Shown piece after piece: positions 18,444 through 25,350 of a stretch of DNA of 64,000 bases (position 1 is its first letter; every line of letters starts with the position of its first letter). This stretch comes from Candidatus Abyssobacteria bacterium SURF_5 (lineage in GTDB: Bacteria; Abyssobacteria; SURF-5). Under the pieces are notes generated by a model. That model saw nothing but the letters and a program-made list of their open reading frames with translations, had not been told where the DNA came from and ran no database searches. The stretch is taken from contig QZKU01000026.1 of the NCBI GenBank assembly GCA_003598085.1, positions 7,335 through 71,334 on the forward strand, in the 5' to 3' direction. The position numbers and the translations under genes were made by a program.

Positions 18444-18478
18444 AATTCTAATTCAAAGATTTGATATAACCTTGAAAG

Positions 18479-20215
18479 CTAACTCTTAATAAATCTTTTG
18501 TAAAAGACCCAAGTGTTGTGAAAACCTCTCCGTTTATTACGATTTGCGCCTCTGAAAATGACAACATTGATTCCAATTTTTCGGCAGATAGGGCAATTAC
18601 ATCTTTCCCAAGGCTTCTCAGATAGAAGTTTTTCATATTTTTCAGCAAAATGATTGTCTTCACTTTGACGTTCTAACAAAGGTCCGTATCTATTTAATGC
18701 AATAAGAGTTTCTTCTGCTCCTTTTGGATTGTCTCCAAAAACACCCAAGGAGCGAAGACAATTTTCTTCAAGTATACGAGCTTTCTCTTTGGAAAGTTTC
18801 TTATCTGCTACGGCTTCCTGTATCGCTTTGGAATCACTAAACGGTACCCGAACGGCCGCATACCATGTTCCGTCAACCGCCAAATAATTTTGATCCGATC
18901 TTAGCCAAGCCTTCCGAAAATATGAGGCAGAATCAAAGCTAGATACTCCCAATGTGCGAAAAAATGGTTGTAGCTTGGGCCGAAGGATCCCAAATAGATG
19001 CAGCCATAAGTTTTCTTCGTGCCCTCTTGTTCGCTCTTGCAGAGCTTTCCTGACTGCGCCCACAATCTCGATTATTTCTGAATCAGAGCGTGGTACTAAT
19101 CCACCCAAAGCTATATGCCGATATCCCATATCTATGTACTGATGCAAGCAGGATATATAGGAGCGGACACCAACGCCCTGAATGACGCCCATAGGTATAA
19201 AAGAATAGTTCTTTTTCTTCCATAGTCCAATGAATTCAGCAGCGTTTTCTGTTGTCAGTTTTACTCTTTCGTACCTGGCAGATAGACTCAATATGCGCTT
19301 ACGTGAACTTCCATCTTTATGTTTTTTTACTATTTCTTGCAATGGTATATGGTCTACTGACGCGCCTATATCAAAGCCGTATTTGTGGTACATATCTAAA
19401 GCTTCCATTGTGGAAAAAGGAGGTTTACTCTCCGCTGTATATGAAAATGCCCCACAATCTCCAAACAGAAGCATGTTATCCGGGAGTTGTAGCACCTCTC
19501 TGAGGTTTCCAGATGAGCACCTCCCCTTGGCCATTCTATAAATTGCACCTTTACCCATATTCATGTGAGATAAACTTAAAAGCACGCCATCATAAGGGGC
19601 ATCTTTGCCGTATATTTCATGGGCGTATGCTTTACGAGACTCACCAGCCTTTATGGGTTCTTTGCCTTCGTCTGGAATAAATGGCTCATCAACGTAATCG
19701 TCCCAATCAGGAAAAAAATAAATATATGAGCGGATGCTTTTACCTTTTTTTTCGATAGATGCTGTCTTAGATGGCAGTTTTTCAAGCCATGATTTCATGG
19801 CTTTCATTTTCATGCCGATGGGTCCTTTTGCGTAAGTAAACTTCGCTTTTGGGAAGATTTTCTCAATCCCCCTGACCGCATTAAGATAATCTGCACCTAA
19901 ATTCAGGAATATACCCTCCGGCTGTGATAGCTTTTGAAGCGCTGATAGGACCCTTTTGTTAAATGATGTGGCAGAATGCGAGTCAAAACGCTGGTCGTAT
20001 TGACTTATTATAGTTGTAGCATCGATCAATCCATATTTGGCTGAGAGAATCTTAATCTGTAATCCCGGAGGCCAGCCTTTAACGAGAAGCATTTTTCTTA
20101 GAACTCGAAAGTTAACTCCATCATACAAGCACATGGCCGGAGCTTTTATTACCTGCGGTAATTTAGTTTTTGAACAGGCCACTATCAATAAGTGACCTTC
20201 GAGGTGAGTTGTCAT
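18479..20215 (-). CDS. TGT-family (queuine/archaeosine tRNA-ribosyltransferase-like, DpdA-like) base-exchange enzyme with a roughly 230 aa N-terminal domain of unknown function
   Basis: The C-terminal approx. 350 aa carry the TGT hallmarks. LFGDCGAFSY aligns to the TGT Asp-nucleophile loop (DSGGFQ). GVSSFDSASYF aligns to the second catalytic Asp loop (GxDMFDCV). The C-terminal zinc site CNCPICx22H matches TGT CxCxxC...H. The protein is Lys-rich, AT-rich codon usage; 578 aa. Confidence 0.72.
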   Translation of the reverse strand: MTTHLEGHLLIVACSKTKLPQVIKAPAMCLYDGVNFRVLRKMLLVKGWPPGLQIKILSAKYGLIDATTIISQYDQRFDSHSATSFNKRVLSALQKLSQPEGIFLNLGADYLNAVRGIEKIFPKAKFTYAKGPIGMKMKAMKSWLEKLPSKTASIEKKGKSIRSYIYFFPDWDDYVDEPFIPDEGKEPIKAGESRKAYAHEIYGKDAPYDGVLLSLSHMNMGKGAIYRMAKGRCSSGNLREVLQLPDNMLLFGDCGAFSYTAESKPPFSTMEALDMYHKYGFDIGASVDHIPLQEIVKKHKDGSSRKRILSLSARYERVKLTTENAAEFIGLWKKKNYSFIPMGVIQGVGVRSYISCLHQYIDMGYRHIALGGLVPRSDSEIIEIVGAVRKALQERTRGHEENLWLHLFGILRPKLQPFFRTLGVSSFDSASYFRKAWLRSDQNYLAVDGTWYAAVRVPFSDSKAIQEAVADKKLSKEKARILEENCLRSLGVFGDNPKGAEETLIALNRYGPLLERQSEDNHFAEKYEKLLSEKPWERCNCPICRKIGINVVIFRGANRNKRRGFHNTWVFYKRFIKS

Positions 20216-21033
20216 TTTTTGTAAATGAATTTGCGCTTGTAATTGTTGGTTAAGTTAAATTGATTATTCGCTAAAATTAAATGTGGAAGTTCCTCAAAGG
20301 ATGATATTGTAAAATGTGGACAAATATCCCTTACCGCCGGCATCCAAAATGGCTGAAAGCCACCAGCGAAATAGATAGTGTAGAATCCAGCTTCCTTAGC
20401 AGGCGCTATATCTCGATCAAGCTGGTCTCCGACCATGTAATTTGACTGAGATGCAACATCAAATTCTGCAAGGATCTCTTGATATATCCTCACTTCTTTC
20501 CTTGCAACTAGGATTTTGTGGATGTAATTAGAAAGCTCATACTTATTCAGTAATAATTTGCACTTATCCCGGTTACCTTCCGTTAGGATAACCAGAAGCC
20601 CACCTCGCTGGTGTAATTTCTTTACGCCCTGACGCACCCCAATCCGTAATGGCGGAATTTCCGATTTCAGTTTTTTAATGAACAGCATCTCCATTTCGTT
20701 AATAAAATCTCGGCCCAGCACATCTGTTCCTGTTCTTACTGCTTCTCTCACCGACACGAGGGGAGAATGTCCCGTCAGAGCTAGGGCTAGGGCATTTATT
20801 AGCAATCGCGCAGGATATTCCAAATTATAATTATGCAGTCGCGCTAAATTTTGATCCATCCTTCTCAGAAACGAAAGCTTATCATCCGAGGGAGCAGTAA
20901 CCTTCAAATGCTTTTCGATCTCGGAAAGCAAAATCAATTGGCTTTTCGCATACACCAAATCAGTATCCCATAATGTATTATCTGCATCCAAGACCACTAG
21001 CACTTCTCGGTTCCTTTTAGATTTTGCCTTCAT
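20212..21033 (-). CDS. HAD-superfamily hydrolase/phosphatase. The track ORF extends to 21129; the start is placed at Met MKAKSKRN to avoid overlap with the upstream gene
   Basis: HAD motif I VVLDADNTLWDTD (DxDxT), motif II ILTEGN, conserved Lys, and motif IV GDQLDRD; 4-nt overlap with the TGT-like gene. Confidence 0.72.
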   Translation of the reverse strand: MKAKSKRNREVLVVLDADNTLWDTDLVYAKSQLILLSEIEKHLKVTAPSDDKLSFLRRMDQNLARLHNYNLEYPARLLINALALALTGHSPLVSVREAVRTGTDVLGRDFINEMEMLFIKKLKSEIPPLRIGVRQGVKKLHQRGGLLVILTEGNRDKCKLLLNKYELSNYIHKILVARKEVRIYQEILAEFDVASQSNYMVGDQLDRDIAPAKEAGFYTIYFAGGFQPFWMPAVRDICPHFTISSFEELPHLILANNQFNLTNNYKRKFIYKK

Positions 21034-21053
21034 ATGAACCCTACTTGAAAAAG

Positions 21054-21746
21054 CTACAATGTCTCTGGGAAAACAAACATCAATCCACAAATGACTATCC
21101 ACAAAACAAAAACGATTGTACTTAGCCACAACATAAAAACCCCCAGTTGAAGGGTTTGCAGCTTAATTCGAATTTTATAAGCTATTAAATAAGCCTCATG
21201 AATGTAATGCTTTATATACAGCAATTGAAGTTGATTACTGCAATTGTCGCAAAATGCTGCTGCCCAACCTCTGGGGGTAGCCTCAATTATCTTTGGAAAG
21301 AACAGGAAGGAGGCTGGATTTTTCAAGTCTGCACTTTTCGGAGGTGAACCTTTCGACCAATCATGAGGTACGTTAAATCGTGGTCTAACTGACCAAATTA
21401 TGAAAGAAGCTCCTGAAACTACCAACAGACAGAAGAGACCGAATACGGAATAGAAAAGCCACAATGTCCAACTCCACATTTGATAATTCATCAATGACCC
21501 ATTGTCGTCTTTGGGAAGAAGAGCCACAAAAATTGCTCCTGCGAGAGCGCTTAAGAACGCGGTTGCTGTCAATATCCGGTTGGCCTTTTCGTCTTCATAT
21601 TCCGTAAGGTGCTTTACCTCCTCGAAAGAGGTTTTCGCAAAACTTAGCAGAGCACCAAGGTCTTCTCTTGCAGGATCAAGATTCTTCAGTTCTGAAAATA
21701 TGGGCTCTGAAATCTTCCGGCTTTCAGAAGGGCTAGCCTTAGCCAT
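21054..21746 (-). CDS. Small integral membrane protein (about 60 aa cytoplasmic N-terminus plus 3 predicted TM helices), a candidate membrane effector of the island
   Basis: Hydrophobic segments ILTATAFLSALAGAIFVALL, WTLWLFYSVFGLFCLLVVSGASFIIW and LGVFMLWLSTIVFVLWIVICGLMFVF; no enzymatic motif; AT-rich. Confidence 0.5.
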   Translation of the reverse strand: MAKASPSESRKISEPIFSELKNLDPAREDLGALLSFAKTSFEEVKHLTEYEDEKANRILTATAFLSALAGAIFVALLPKDDNGSLMNYQMWSWTLWLFYSVFGLFCLLVVSGASFIIWSVRPRFNVPHDWSKGSPPKSADLKNPASFLFFPKIIEATPRGWAAAFCDNCSNQLQLLYIKHYIHEAYLIAYKIRIKLQTLQLGVFMLWLSTIVFVLWIVICGLMFVFPETL

Positions 21747-21791
21747 TGATCTCTTTGTCCCTCCCTTGTCTTCCGTTATTCCTTCTCATTA

Positions 21792-22976
21792 TTATGGGAC
21801 TGTTGGCTTGGATTGCTTTTGAGCAGGACAAAAATTCTTGAAATCACATGCTGTGCAGGTTCTAATATTCTGATTAGTCTTCCAGCATTTTCTGATAGCT
21901 ACTCCAGCAATTTCTGCAAGCACGGAAGCCTCAATTTCTTCAACAGTTTGATCAAATCTGGATAAACTAGCTCCTATCGCACTTTTATTCACGGGAATAA
22001 TTCTTATTGAGCGATTTTCTTTGAACGTCCTAGAAAGACTAGGTAAATTGCTGCGTCGGTTCCAGCGTTGGATATTTTCTAGGTCCTTGCCTGTTGCCAT
22101 TATATCAGTTTGGCCTTGGTTGATATCGTTCTTAAGTGCTAGCATATCTTCAATTGATAAAGCTAATTCATTTATATATATGAGTATACCCGCTATTATT
22201 TGCTTTGCGCCCACCTGTTGTGATCGTAGCCAGGAATAGGTGAGAATCTGCCATTCGTGATGTTTCCACGTTTCGTCAACAAAAGAAGGGCGGCGCATGC
22301 CTTTGTAATCGACAATGATTTCATATTCATCAAGGGAAGAAACTTTGAAGTAATGCTGAACATCTGAATGCTGATTCAAATAATGCAGAAGCAGACTTCC
22401 AGATGGAGCATTTACAATGCTAACAGAGCTTATGACATCAATAACGCCCTTCATTCCATAATAATTTGATCTGCTAAGATTGGGATGATAACTTGGCATG
22501 TCTCGACTGCACTTCAATTTCACTTCTGCCTCGGCAATTATTGGAAACAGATGCATTCCCCATGTGTTTATGGCCATTTCTGCTCGCTGGCTAGCAATAA
22601 GTTTATGTGGATGATTGGCGTCGGGACAAAACCCTGGTGTCGTTGCAGAAGAATCAAATGGACAAAAAAGATTTGGCGGAGGTGGAAGACCTCTCGCGAT
22701 CAATCTATCATTAATTTGCGCTTCGACATTACGGATGTCTGATTCCCATAGCCACGGAAATCTTCTCTTTTTTGGCTCGTCACGCCATTCACGATACGCC
22801 TCTTCCATCAATCCATGGATAAATTCACCAAACCACAACTGAACCGGAGTCGATGGTGGGAGGGACCCTTTATTGTAATATCTATACTGAAGGCCGCATG
22901 TTAAGAATGCCAACAAGTCACCCGTCAAGCTGTATTCAGGAATACTATACGGTTTTGGTCGTACAGAAAGAAACAT
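21792..22976 (-). CDS. Cas4/RecB-like PD-(D/E)xK nuclease with a 4Fe-4S cluster cysteine set
   Basis: N-terminal C...YRYY motif (LTCGLQYRYY) typical of the Cas4/AddB nuclease domain. Core MKGVIDVI (Asp) plus IVDYKG (D-x-K). C-terminal Cys triad CTACDFKNFC. 394 aa. Confidence 0.68.
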   Translation of the reverse strand: MFLSVRPKPYSIPEYSLTGDLLAFLTCGLQYRYYNKGSLPPSTPVQLWFGEFIHGLMEEAYREWRDEPKKRRFPWLWESDIRNVEAQINDRLIARGLPPPPNLFCPFDSSATTPGFCPDANHPHKLIASQRAEMAINTWGMHLFPIIAEAEVKLKCSRDMPSYHPNLSRSNYYGMKGVIDVISSVSIVNAPSGSLLLHYLNQHSDVQHYFKVSSLDEYEIIVDYKGMRRPSFVDETWKHHEWQILTYSWLRSQQVGAKQIIAGILIYINELALSIEDMLALKNDINQGQTDIMATGKDLENIQRWNRRSNLPSLSRTFKENRSIRIIPVNKSAIGASLSRFDQTVEEIEASVLAEIAGVAIRKCWKTNQNIRTCTACDFKNFCPAQKQSKPTVP

Positions 22977-22982
22977 TTGCTC

Positions 22983-25331
22983 CTACCTCAAATGTGTCAG
23001 GTTTTGTAGTCCCCTGCCCCAATGCCAGGTATTACCTCTATCCCATCCGGTGCCGATATTGCGGATTCTATTTTTGACGGCATTCAGCCCAACTAGCAAG
23101 AGGACATCCTGAGCTCTACTGAAGGCAACAAAGTAATGTCTAATAAGATCGTCAAATGCTCTATCAAGGGATGAACGTGTTGACGTTCCCAAGGGAGAAA
23201 ACTGCCTCAATTCATCTTCAATCTTACATGTTTTGCCGCCATCTCTTGGGAATCTCTTAAAAGCCTGTCGCCAGTGATTTATCCTAAAATCACTTCCTAC
23301 ATCTACAATTACAAATGGGAATTCCAGTCCTTTTGCCTGATGAATTGACATGATATTAACTCTGTCGCTAGGAAGCGTATCAAGTAGGTCCTCATTGACT
23401 TCTATGGCTCCGCTGGCTAATGGAACAAAGATGTTCCAAAGCGCCTCTTTAACAAAAGCGTGCTCTAGACGGATATCGGCCTTATTTGGGTCGAATAGGA
23501 TTTCTGCTCCGAAGCTTCCAAACAAACCACTCTGATTGATGGATCTAGTTATAGCTTCAAGATAAACCAATCCTTCTATGTCGTCTTGCATGCTAGGTAT
23601 CCAAGTCACAAGCTTATAAACTAGATCATTCAGTGGGACTCTCTCCTTTTTCTGAATTCTTCTCCCCAGAGGAATTCGAGATTGCCAAGATTGAACGAAC
23701 TGTTGAAGATGTTCCTTGTTTGCGAGGTGGTTATTATTGACATAACCCATGGCATGGTCACGCCACGAGTTGAATGTGTTGGCCGCTGTCGTCGGCAGAT
23801 TTGTTAAACTCTTTTGAACGGAACTCCATGGATCAACACATTCCAGAATTAGACCACAAAGCACTTGCACTTCTGGAATTTGTTGAAGGGGACATCCGCG
23901 TGGATTAAAAACTTCAATTCGGGGCGATGCTTCATGTAGTTCAGTTCGTAGGAGAAAGGGAAGTCGCGGTCTATCAGAGTAATCAAATTCTTGCGGAGAA
24001 GAACATAACAAGGCAATATCACCGAGAGAGCCATCTTTGTTCAGCTTAATCGTAGCTGCCTGTCCTTTTTGGGGGATCCGCAGACCTTGTCCTCTCGACA
24101 CTTCTTCAATGAGTACAGCCAAATCATGAGCTAACGATCCGACGTCGTCTCTAAACATACCTAGAATTGGACATTCTTGTGGTTCTGGAATTTGCCGTAC
24201 GTGTTTAATTTTAGGTTTAGAGTTTACGCGAGCTTTCTGAAATTGCTGATCCAAGCCAATGAAGTTATTTATAAATTCTACGATAGTCGGAGTCGACCGA
24301 TAATTTAAAGAAAGATATTTTGGAACTGGTTTGAGATTTAAACATTTGGCCATTCTCTTTTCGAACGACCGAAATAATTCTACTGTTGCACCGCGAAAGC
24401 GGTAAAGCGATTGATCGTCATCTCCGACAACAGTAATGCTTCCCTTGTTAATTAAGGCAGCACGTGTCAATTCAAAGTATATCTTCTCTTGAAGTAGGTT
24501 TGTGTCCTGATATTCATCTATTAGGACGAACTTTATATTTTGAAGAAAGGAGTTTAACTTTTGGGAAAGAATTTGTTGAAAAAACTCTGCTTCTAATTTT
24601 GCAAAATCGTACAAAAGCTTCTTCTGTAATTCTTGATTATATGCAGTGATGGCATCACACGCAATTTGTGCTCCCAAATGCTGAGCCTTCCGTTGGAATG
24701 CAGAAATATCTATTTGGTCATGAAAGAAACGGTCTTTAATTTCTCTTAAAGTAGAACTTAACTCAGGAACATTTAACCCGAAGGTTCCACCTCTTAAAGA
24801 AGCAACATAATTCAGCAGATTTGGGTCCTTGTATCTGCCATTGGAAAAAAGGCCAGTCCGCATCATCAAGGCATTTGAAACAAAATCTTGGACTACGATT
24901 GGCGCAGGAGCACCAGGAGCGCGATAATTTCCTAAAGTCTCTTCAGCTATGCTGTCCAGAGTTCCTGTAATAATCCTGTTGAAATCTAGTGACTTCAACC
25001 TTGATCTTAACTTCTCGTATGATGAATCCTTTAGGAAAGCAGCACGAAGTTGGTCTCCCCATCCTAGAATCCTTGACCTAAGTTCAGCGGCAGCTTTACG
25101 GGTAAAGGTGGTAACCAATACATTCGAGGGGTCCATTTCATCAAGATATATTAACTTCAGCACTCTAAGTGTAATGACAGTTGTCTTACCACTGCCCGGT
25201 CCCGCGATAAGATAAAGCGAGGAACCTTGAGCAGCCTTAATCGCTTCATATTGGCTAAGATTTTTTTCTTTTCGTATGTCTCTCTGAATGAAGGTCAATA
25301 CGGCTTTTTCAAAATCGGGCCAACTAATCAT
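22983..25331 (-). CDS. UvrD/Rep/PcrA-like superfamily-1 DNA helicase
   Basis: Walker A AGPGSGKT, Ia VTTFTRKAAAEL, motif II VLIDEYQDTN, III VVGDDDQSLYRFRGA, IV LSLNYRSTPTIVEF and VI IHQAKGLEFPFVIV; 782 aa; 6-nt gap to the nuclease gene. Confidence 0.88.
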   Translation of the reverse strand: MISWPDFEKAVLTFIQRDIRKEKNLSQYEAIKAAQGSSLYLIAGPGSGKTTVITLRVLKLIYLDEMDPSNVLVTTFTRKAAAELRSRILGWGDQLRAAFLKDSSYEKLRSRLKSLDFNRIITGTLDSIAEETLGNYRAPGAPAPIVVQDFVSNALMMRTGLFSNGRYKDPNLLNYVASLRGGTFGLNVPELSSTLREIKDRFFHDQIDISAFQRKAQHLGAQIACDAITAYNQELQKKLLYDFAKLEAEFFQQILSQKLNSFLQNIKFVLIDEYQDTNLLQEKIYFELTRAALINKGSITVVGDDDQSLYRFRGATVELFRSFEKRMAKCLNLKPVPKYLSLNYRSTPTIVEFINNFIGLDQQFQKARVNSKPKIKHVRQIPEPQECPILGMFRDDVGSLAHDLAVLIEEVSRGQGLRIPQKGQAATIKLNKDGSLGDIALLCSSPQEFDYSDRPRLPFLLRTELHEASPRIEVFNPRGCPLQQIPEVQVLCGLILECVDPWSSVQKSLTNLPTTAANTFNSWRDHAMGYVNNNHLANKEHLQQFVQSWQSRIPLGRRIQKKERVPLNDLVYKLVTWIPSMQDDIEGLVYLEAITRSINQSGLFGSFGAEILFDPNKADIRLEHAFVKEALWNIFVPLASGAIEVNEDLLDTLPSDRVNIMSIHQAKGLEFPFVIVDVGSDFRINHWRQAFKRFPRDGGKTCKIEDELRQFSPLGTSTRSSLDRAFDDLIRHYFVAFSRAQDVLLLVGLNAVKNRIRNIGTGWDRGNTWHWGRGLQNLTHLR

Positions 25332-25350
25332 AGATGCACTTTTTACAACC

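Follow-up and report, generated by a model that had tools for sequence, protein, structure and literature searches.

What does a small membrane protein with three transmembrane (TM) helices do between a nuclease gene and a phosphatase gene, close to a gene for a 7-deazaguanine DNA transglycosylase? This question is raised by a stretch of 64,000 nucleotides (nt) from Candidatus Abyssobacteria bacterium SURF_5 (assembly GCA_003598085.1, contig QZKU01000026.1, positions 7,335 to 71,334 of the forward strand), hereafter the window, in which positions 21054..21746 of the minus strand encode a protein of 230 amino acids (aa), hereafter the 3TM protein. We report here that this protein, as judged from profile matches, is a divergent member of the superfamily of the PycTM membrane effectors, that it is obligatorily paired with a hydrolase of one of two unrelated families, HAD or Qng1-like, and that it travels with DpdA, the transglycosylase of the Dpd DNA modification and restriction systems. 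As a tentative proposal, it may serve the Dpd system as the channel or scaffold of a membrane module for 7-deazaguanine nucleotides or nucleosides.

A divergent member of the PycTM superfamily

The open reading frame begins with an ATG located 45 nt past the PD-(D/E)XK nuclease gene and stops 20 nt before the likely start of the HAD gene (ATG 21033). The gene is real rather than a chance open reading frame: the identical protein is recorded from a metagenome-assembled genome of Candidatus Abyssobacteria SURF_5, and it has 85 homologs (E values of 1e-62 to 1e-12, 34-50% identity). An exhaustive profile search yielded 636 cluster representatives, including 183 at E<=1e-30, and as to a phage origin, no relative was found among the viral contigs of IMG/VR.

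The original prediction, made from the DNA letters, had described a 230-aa protein with an N-terminus of about 60 residues and three hydrophobic helices, encoded between the HAD and nuclease genes and devoid of a housekeeping signature, and all these points agree with our results. A Kyte-Doolittle scan (19 residues) located the hydrophobic segments at about residues 58-77, 93-119 and 200-225, behind a hydrophilic N-terminus of 57 residues; just five residues follow TM3. The AlphaFold2 model generated with 71 homologs (pLDDT 89.6, pTM 0.81) has long helices at residues 30-75, 93-120 and 170-225, and in this model TM1 and TM3 are both predicted to continue as soluble helices, which lie together on one side of the membrane. 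Looking for a transporter or a housekeeping family in the Pfam (E<=1) and NCBIfam scans returned nothing relevant, and in particular no match to the YhhQ/COG1738, QueT/QrtT, UPS and MFS families. The features of the gene and its product are as follows.

21054..21746, minus strand: three-TM membrane protein of 230 aa, member of the PycTM / pJV1-SpdB3-like superfamily (open reading frame, PADLOC PycTM models, sub-threshold Pfam PF18967 match, homologs and AlphaFold2 model)
21576..21629, minus strand: residues 40-57, juxtamembrane helix ahead of TM1, predicted to be cytoplasmic (column conservation)
21516..21575, minus strand: TM1, residues 58-77 (hydropathy; AlphaFold2 helix 30-75)
21390..21470, minus strand: TM2, residues 93-119, with a presumed pore-lining role by homology to EcPucTM (hydropathy; AlphaFold2 helix 93-120)
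21150..21389, minus strand: residues 120-199, conserved loop and helical region between TM2 and TM3, predicted to be cytoplasmic (conservation; flanks rich in lysine and arginine)
21072..21149, minus strand: TM3, residues 200-225 (hydropathy maximum 2.6; AlphaFold2 helix 170-225)

The 3TM protein was matched, over almost the whole length of each model, by the PADLOC PycTM models PDLC02364 (E=7e-10; residues 36-221 on model positions 8-153 of 160), PDLC02363 (E=5e-7) and PDLC02365 (E=3e-5), and weakly by the PADLOC models of the CBASS '2TM effector'. It scored 19.1 bits with Pfam PF18967, below the cutoff of 27.2; the same Pfam family is precomputed on most of the homologs, and one protein of the same branch (P0156) lies above the cutoff with 34.4 bits. 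UniRef names the window protein after the Pycsar effector domain, and both the hydropathy and the AlphaFold2 model show the architecture of the family, i.e., three TM helices with helical soluble regions ahead of TM1 and between TM2 and TM3. By these matches and this architecture, the protein is a divergent member of the PycTM or 'pJV1-SpdB3-like 3TM' superfamily. The further suggestion that the protein might be SLATT-like had to be abandoned, as there was no SLATT match in the Pfam scan at E<=1 and there are three TM helices instead of two.

The PycTM and PucTM effectors have been described as 'pJV1-SpdB3 family 3TM' proteins, and cryo-EM of EcPucTM showed a hexameric cylinder in which each protomer has three TM helices, with a channel of ~15 A lined by TM2 and a mostly helical cytosolic region (bioRxiv 10.64898/2026.08.12.744502). 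SpdB3, the namesake of the family, is highly toxic upon expression in E. coli; it is needed for the intramycelial spreading of plasmids, as a part of the TraB/Spd DNA-translocation complex. The PycTM family is one of oligomeric, membrane-permeabilising proteins.

Other searches were less informative. A profile search of the PDB sequences for solved relatives gave noise only, and Foldseek comparison of the AlphaFold2 model with PDB and BFVD returned generic long-helix proteins, with no match at E<0.1 in the PDB copy, which predates the PucTM entry. None of the Dpd profiles of PADLOC matched the 3TM protein, though the neighbouring gene matches DpdA at 2e-102, and no DNA-binding domain was detected in the Pfam scan. 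Four relatives of 413-429 aa (P0163, P0251, P0261 and P0263, from Sphingopyxis sp. JAI108 and metagenomes) possess an extra soluble N-terminal domain of ~180 aa, which has no Pfam match; the motif variant of their sub-branch is AQTEYQDQKATRLLT.

Obligate pairing with a downstream hydrolase and linkage to DpdA

The genetic contexts of the 3TM homologs were gathered from collections of metagenomes, genomes and plasmids, and a panel of marker proteins was mapped onto all loci. Dereplication of the 3TM sequences at 80% identity yielded 22 lineages, and for 19 of them the downstream DNA could be read. The gene that comes next on this strand encodes a HAD of the window subfamily in 14 of these 19 lineages and a Q_salvage protein (PF10343; Qng1/DUF2419) in the other five, the PF10343 matches having E values of ~1e-49 to 1e-50. 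The gene of the downstream enzyme often overlaps the 3TM stop codon, and the 3TM proteins partnered with Q_salvage form a single clade nested among the HAD-partnered ones. The pairing of the 3TM protein with a HAD or a Qng1-like hydrolase is obligate.

Similarly, nearly every 3TM locus with enough flanking DNA carries DpdA together with DUF6884/DpdC-like, DpdB, DpdD, DpdG or preQ0 genes (QueC/D/E, YhhQ). This linkage holds for either restriction module, be it UvrD with a PD-(D/E)XK nuclease or the canonical Dpd set, and in the window DpdA is encoded two genes downstream of the 3TM gene. The 3TM gene tracks DpdA and the downstream enzyme gene, not the helicase-nuclease pair. This finding divides what had been predicted, namely an effector or an anchor of a conflict system. 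We do find a small multi-TM protein in an acquired conflict cassette, with abortive-infection membrane effectors (PADLOC PycTM) as its only detectable relatives; what does not hold is the tie to the helicase and nuclease. The genomic context speaks more for the anchor alternative than for a stand-alone effector of the nuclease.

Among the 72,556 plasmids of PLSDB, four records have the 3TM protein, and the window HAD subfamily is intact only in these same four, the fifth match being an N-terminally truncated orphan in an unrelated context. Full-length DpdA occurs in 17 PLSDB plasmids, which include all four 3TM plasmids. The operon of the rhizobial plasmids reads (dpdC-like)-dpdB-dpdA-dpdB-queE-queD-queC-(VUT/YhhQ)-3TM-HAD, and the rhizobial 3TM orthologs are annotated as 'hypothetical protein' in RefSeq. 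The two dpdB copies flanking dpdA were seen in plasmid B of S. americanum CCGM7 (L039) and in pB41S5 of Bradyrhizobium sp. 41S5 (L040). The annotation of S. americanum shows no restriction gene within 12 kb of the 3TM-HAD pair, and this may be a modification-only Dpd locus. The cultured strains that carry the 3TM gene include S. americanum CCGM7 (ortholog WP_156877989.1), Bradyrhizobium sp. 41S5 and Rhizobium sp. Root483D2.

We also considered that the 3TM gene could belong to a Pycsar or Pucsar system, with an adjacent cyclase. No cyclic nucleoside monophosphate (cNMP) cyclase was found in the window cassette (Pfam, PADLOC and NCBIfam scans), and no cyclase (PF00211) in the 18 related loci that have precomputed gene tables. 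Because no cyclase accompanies the 3TM gene, the locus is not a Pycsar locus.

Two other features of the related loci are worth recording. Many cassettes have QueD (PTPS), which catalyses the first committed step toward preQ0, without QueC or QueE, usually adjoining the pair of 3TM and enzyme genes (L006, L010, L012-L014, L017, L027, L029, L030, L036 and L037). Genes for TIR, TIR-SIR2, RES/Xre toxin-antitoxin and HEPN-like HepT proteins lie beside related cassettes (L005 16683-16831, L013 12542-14029, L015 7507-8789 and L001 15400-15717). Because TIR, SIR2, RES and HEPN genes adjoin several cassettes, the related loci are defence islands.

Natural fusions to the hydrolase and to the preQ0 transporter

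Seven proteins are fusions of a 3TM and a HAD moiety. Six of them form a clade (P0095, P0098, P0100, P0150, P0156 and P0215), in which the HAD motif I begins 10-28 residues past TM3; two of these fusions were confirmed on contigs, in the same type of cassette, with QueD as the next gene in each. The seventh, P0245, arose independently and joins the two moieties through a tail of ~55 residues. In addition, P0244 is a fusion of the order YhhQ(6TM)-linker-3TM, and its gene is located between nuclease and HAD genes, like the 3TM gene of the window. Because of these HAD and YhhQ fusions, we have strong evidence, of a comparative kind, that the 3TM protein physically works with the hydrolase and with the preQ0 transporter.

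Another protein, P0086 (509 aa), comprises two complete 3TM units in tandem, separated by a hydrophilic linker of ~70 aa; either a genuine fusion or the read-through of two adjacent paralogs could account for it. As the number of TM helices is odd, the second unit would be inverted.

A conserved face, predicted to be cytoplasmic

The alignment used to study conservation spans the HAD-partnered, the Q_salvage-partnered and the rhizobial branches, which share only ~30% identity. Thirty-eight positions are at least 90% conserved; 27 of them fall in the two segments 40-57 and 120-199, and the short (periplasmic) loop between TM1 and TM2 has none. Residues 40-57 make up the most conserved stretch, S-x3-V-x-H-L-T-E-Y-E-D-E-K-A-N-R, with 11 of 18 columns conserved at 90% or more; S40, V44, T48, Y50, D52, K54 and R57 are invariant across all branches. 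The region of residues 120-199 has 16 such columns, with the motifs RPRF, P-x-SFLFF, W-x2-AF and E-x-YL-x3-K-x3-K, and S146, W161, E184, K191 and K195 are further invariant residues. Such a mixture of polar and aromatic conserved residues would be expected for a binding surface, not for a bare anchor.

Across the family, the count of lysine and arginine residues is 8.9 on the side of the membrane comprising the N-terminus and the second loop, versus 3.2 on the other side. An orientation with the N-terminus inside and the C-terminus outside (N-in/C-out) is indicated by this bias and by the YhhQ-3TM fusion, and therefore a C-terminally fused HAD would be extracytoplasmic.

The partner enzymes and their likely substrate

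The HAD of the window has all the catalytic motifs (D16-x-D18, T151, K179 and D203/D208), which are invariant in its subfamily. Its AlphaFold2 model (pLDDT 89.6) has the fold of a C1-capped small-molecule phosphatase, and the protein is weakly similar to the YjjG/YfnB nucleotidase group. Its PDB neighbours include B. subtilis YfnB and NANP, and most of them are uncharacterised; an assignment of the substrate from the structure was attempted and given up for this reason.

The alternative partner, the Qng1-like protein, matches the solved Qng1 of S. thermophilus (StQng1) at E=2e-46 and, by our reading of the alignment, keeps K199, D231, Y232, D298, W302, F75 and the C-terminal tyrosine of StQng1, which are the catalytic, ribose-binding and 7-deazaguanine-recognition residues (PMC9881137). 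It alters the pocket for the 7-substituent of queuosine, with Y93 changed to A, W94 to F and W299 to Y, which hints that it could be specific for preQ0 or ADG nucleotides rather than queuosine. Altered-pocket Qng1-like proteins of this kind occur in Dpd islands at L015:10887-11906, with homologs in L016, L020-L025 and L032.

The preferred substrate of Qng1 is a nucleoside 5'-monophosphate. HAD phosphatases are signature enzymes of the toyocamycin-type clusters, the pathway of which runs through preQ0-derived nucleotides; ToyH and ToyI reportedly catalyse the phosphoribosyl pyrophosphate (PRPP) transferase and HAD phosphatase steps of toyocamycin/sangivamycin biosynthesis. We infer that the common denominator of the HAD and Qng1-like partners would be the hydrolysis of a 7-deazaguanine (deoxy)nucleoside 5'-monophosphate. 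The standalone partners, HAD as well as Qng1-like, have neither a signal peptide nor a TM segment.

The cassette in the window

The 3TM gene is the third of five genes on the same strand, in the order UvrD-like helicase, PD-(D/E)XK nuclease, 3TM, HAD and DUF6884+DpdA, with intergenic gaps of 6, 45, 20 and -4 nt. The other four genes are as follows.

22983..25331, minus strand: UvrD/AddA/GajB-like superfamily 1 helicase, 782 aa, first gene of the cassette (Pfam UvrD-helicase 2e-45; PADLOC GajB 3e-34)
21792..22976, minus strand: PD-(D/E)XK Cas4-like nuclease, 394 aa, the presumed restriction component (Pfam PDDEXK_1 5e-10; PADLOC Cas4 7e-7)
20212..21033, minus strand: HAD-superfamily phosphatase, 273 aa from ATG 21033 (Pfam HAD_2 4e-10, Hydrolase 6.5e-9)
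18479..20215, minus strand: fusion of DUF6884 (DpdC/YaaA-like) and DpdA, 578 aa, 7-deazaguanine DNA transglycosylase (NCBIfam NF041059, Pfam DUF6884)

The product of 18479..20215 matches the NCBIfam DpdA model NF041059 at E=2e-108, above the equivalog cutoff, and its N-terminus matches Pfam DUF6884 (3.5e-10), of the YaaA/DpdC-like fold group; on this N-terminal domain, the only PADLOC model to touch is the candidate PDC-M57A. The DpdA-fusion gene overlaps the stop of the HAD gene by 4 nt. A longer HAD reading frame of 305 aa, which starts at an upstream GTG and overlaps the 3TM gene, is probably too long. A 71-aa open reading frame (18448-18663, minus strand) shares the 3' end of the DpdA gene, in a different frame; its one Pfam match is very weak (E=0.12), and it is probably spurious.

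The cassette (18448-25350) is inserted between purL and purQ, on the same strand, with gaps of 19 and 35 nt. Its GC content is 41%, and its GC content at third codon positions is 0.36-0.41, versus 0.66-0.72 for the flanking genes. This conflict cassette was acquired horizontally; no integrase was found with it in the window, and no direct repeat of more than 9 nt at the junctions of the island. Because it is spliced into the purL-purQ operon, the cassette is probably expressed constitutively. DpdB is not in the cassette, and tblastn with QueC, QueD, QueE, YhhQ and DndB from related loci detected no preQ0 gene in the window. Many metagenome loci show the same combination of DUF6884-DpdA with a UvrD helicase and a Cas4-like nuclease, which makes up a compact Dpd-like system whose layout is not the canonical DpdA-K one.

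Proposed role of the 3TM-enzyme module

We propose, tentatively and in the knowledge that it may well prove wrong, that the 3TM protein provides the channel or the scaffold in a membrane module by which the Dpd system handles 7-deazaguanine nucleotides or nucleosides. The protein would assemble into a channel-like oligomer, as does EcPucTM (a hexamer with TM2 lining the pore), and its conserved cytoplasmic face (residues 40-57 and 120-199) would dock the enzyme, bind a 7-deazaguanine nucleotide or nucleoside, or both. The enzyme partner would hydrolyse a 7-deazaguanine nucleoside 5'-monophosphate, and the complex, beside the preQ0 importer YhhQ or fused to it, could couple the membrane passage of 7-deazapurine compounds to their hydrolysis. 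As a result, free preQ0 base would be supplied to DpdA, and 7-deazaguanine nucleotides would be excluded from the general nucleotide pool. The module would thus be an accessory of the DpdA-based islands of 7-deazaguanine DNA modification and restriction.

We favour this proposal because of the following lines of evidence. First, a 3TM protein is naturally fused to YhhQ. Second, the pair of genes stands at the end of the que-yhhQ operon. Third, the alternative partner belongs to a salvage-enzyme family. Fourth, the presence of the module is independent of the type of restriction module.

Several observations weigh against it. Every characterised relative is toxic or permeabilising, and none is a transporter. 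Loci with a complete preQ0 synthesis and YhhQ still carry the 3TM-enzyme module, and therefore a simple role in preQ0 import would be redundant there. The substrate of the HAD cannot be read from its sequence or fold. The predicted topology puts a fused HAD outside the cell, which conflicts with the standalone partners being devoid of signal peptide and TM segment; possible explanations are that one of the three helices is not a full span in vivo, that the fusion clade acts on the far side of the membrane, or that the topology is dynamic. Finally, the dereplication at 80% identity relied on a quick MAFFT/UPGMA procedure, and most loci are metagenomic.

Another reading, which we consider somewhat unlikely, is that the 3TM protein forms a nucleotide-gated suicide pore of abortive infection. 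The ligand would be a 7-deazaguanine (deoxy)nucleoside monophosphate instead of a cyclic one, originating from modified host DNA degraded during infection or from a disturbed 7-deazapurine metabolism, and the HAD or Qng1-like enzyme would destroy the basal ligand, thereby setting the threshold as an antitoxin does. All characterised relatives are abortive-infection effectors or toxic membrane proteins, and the polar and aromatic residues conserved on the cytoplasmic face fit a ligand site. That two unrelated enzymes able to destroy nucleoside monophosphates swap at one position fits the removal of a ligand better than the making of a particular product. The order of the genes, with the membrane gene first, the enzyme gene overlapping it and an occasional fusion of the two, resembles the design of toxin-antitoxin pairs or self-limiting effectors, and the loci lie in defence islands near TIR, SIR2, RES and HEPN genes. 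However, no signal generator is encoded, and in the rhizobial plasmids the pair belongs to one transcription unit with queE-queD-queC-yhhQ and closes this operon of modification and supply; within 12 kb of the pair, S. americanum has no annotated restriction gene. A fusion to the nutrient importer YhhQ would be odd for a suicide pore, as would the location of the window cassette inside the purL-purQ operon, with a probably constitutive expression, and if the topology is N-in/C-out, a fused HAD would be on the wrong side to clear a cytoplasmic ligand. If this reading were nevertheless true, it would define a defence system in which the product of DNA modification is itself the alarm signal.

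A more specific version of the pore, which we hold to be doubtful, starts from the degradation of modified host DNA by phage nucleases or by failed restriction. The released dPreQ0-MP or dADG-MP would outrun the clearing enzyme and open a PycTM-like hexamer through its cytoplasmic face. In that case, the system would be a relative of Pycsar without a cyclase, and its DNA modification would have two uses, as the self-mark of restriction and as a damage-associated signal leading to abortive infection.

It is improbable that the 3TM protein is a passive membrane anchor, which would only hold the HAD or Qng1-like enzyme at the inner membrane (near YhhQ, for instance), with no role as a channel or in ligand binding. 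The obligate pairing and the fusions do speak for a physical association, and an anchor was one of the alternatives of the original prediction. A bare anchor, however, would need neither the 38 positions conserved at 90% or more across branches of ~30% identity (27 of them polar or aromatic, in soluble segments) nor the three-helix architecture shared with the channel-forming PycTM proteins, and under the predicted topology the fused HAD is opposite to the conserved face.

Even less can be said for an Spd-like membrane pore, which we regard as very improbable; such a pore would act on DNA that enters or leaves the cell and thereby let DpdA and the nuclease inspect it. The family is named after SpdB3, a part of the TraB/Spd DNA translocation machinery, but the 3TM protein is constantly partnered by a small-molecule hydrolase instead of a DNA translocase, its module goes with the genes of preQ0 supply and with YhhQ rather than with the helicase and nuclease, and the protein has no detectable DNA-binding domain.

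We give hardly any credence to an orphan Pycsar or Pucsar effector, hitch-hiking in the cassette and answering cCMP, cUMP or cGMP from a cyclase encoded elsewhere in the genome: the best database matches are PycTM models and the UniRef name comes from the Pycsar effector domain, but the window protein is under the Pfam family cutoff, no cyclase is present in the window cassette or in the 18 tabulated loci, and the strict linkage to the HAD or Qng1-like enzymes and to DpdA contradicts hitch-hiking.

Whatever its exact role, the pair of the 3TM protein and a HAD or Qng1-like enzyme, accompanied by YhhQ in some loci, is a recurrent Dpd component, occurring in 4 of the 17 plasmid-borne Dpd loci, and no name was found for it in the annotation or literature searched. 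It raises the questions of how cells with hypermodified DNA bar modified nucleotides from the deoxynucleoside triphosphate pools and recycle the base, and of whether a bacterial Qng1 homolog with a remodelled pocket acts on preQ0 or ADG nucleotides. The queuosine field still lacks transporters for queuosine precursors, for which the 3TM protein is a candidate membrane component, one that previous neighbourhood screens had not included, and the occurrence of the module in cultured rhizobia makes it directly testable.

Comparison with known systems

Our literature search returned no paper tying PycTM or HAD to dpdA clusters, and nothing for DUF5706, the former name of the PycTM/PucTM effector family PF18967. 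PF18967 is not in the candidate tables, in their text form, of a survey of queuosine transporters (Quaiyum et al. 2024, PMC11130926). Several known systems resemble parts of what we describe.

The pathway of toyocamycin and sangivamycin similarly employs a HAD phosphatase and passes through a preQ0-derived nucleoside 5'-monophosphate; it differs in being a secondary-metabolite pathway, without a membrane partner and without DpdA. The SLATT effectors are likewise small membrane proteins of nucleotide-centric conflict systems, but they have two TM helices, versus three here.

The preQ0 transporter YhhQ (COG1738; Vut_1) is also a membrane protein of dpd and queuosine-salvage clusters, and it is encoded directly upstream of the 3TM gene in the rhizobial operons. 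It has six TM helices and belongs to another family, with no sequence or fold relationship to the 3TM protein, which co-occurs with YhhQ and does not replace it. A transporter of Acidobacteriota that adjoins qng1 has been found to carry preQ0/preQ1 (Quaiyum et al. 2024, PMC11130926).

The canonical Dpd system of the Salmonella Montevideo type (DpdA-DpdK) has DpdA in common with the 3TM loci, and in some of them DpdB, DpdC-like, DpdD, DpdG, PLD, helicase and preQ0 genes as well. Neither the 3TM protein nor the enzyme that partners it is one of DpdA-K or matches a Dpd profile, and the cassette of the window has a compact form (DUF6884-DpdA, UvrD and Cas4-like), without DpdB.

SpdB3 from the conjugative Streptomyces plasmids pSVH1 and pJV1 belongs to the same 3TM superfamily, according to Aravind and co-workers, and is likewise a small membrane protein of a mobile element. 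By description, SpdB3 acts with TraB and other Spd proteins in the spreading of plasmid DNA, without a nucleotide hydrolase or 7-deazaguanine genes.

The closest likeness is to PycTM and PucTM, which share with the 3TM protein the small size, the N-terminal cytoplasmic helix, the three TM helices, the conserved helical region between TM2 and TM3 and the occurrence in defence islands. The 3TM branch differs from them by its length (230-330 aa, versus ~155-165 for the models), by its own invariant motif V-x3-T-x-Y-x-D-x-K-A-x-R, and by having, in DpdA islands, no adjacent cNMP cyclase but a HAD or Qng1-like hydrolase as its obligate partner or fusion moiety, and sometimes YhhQ as a fusion moiety. 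A PycTM channel fold used outside cyclase signalling, and wired to enzymes of 7-deazaguanine nucleotides, would widen the range of what this effector family senses or carries. What is new here is a known membrane-effector fold in a tightly conserved partnership with enzymes of the 7-deazaguanine pathway.

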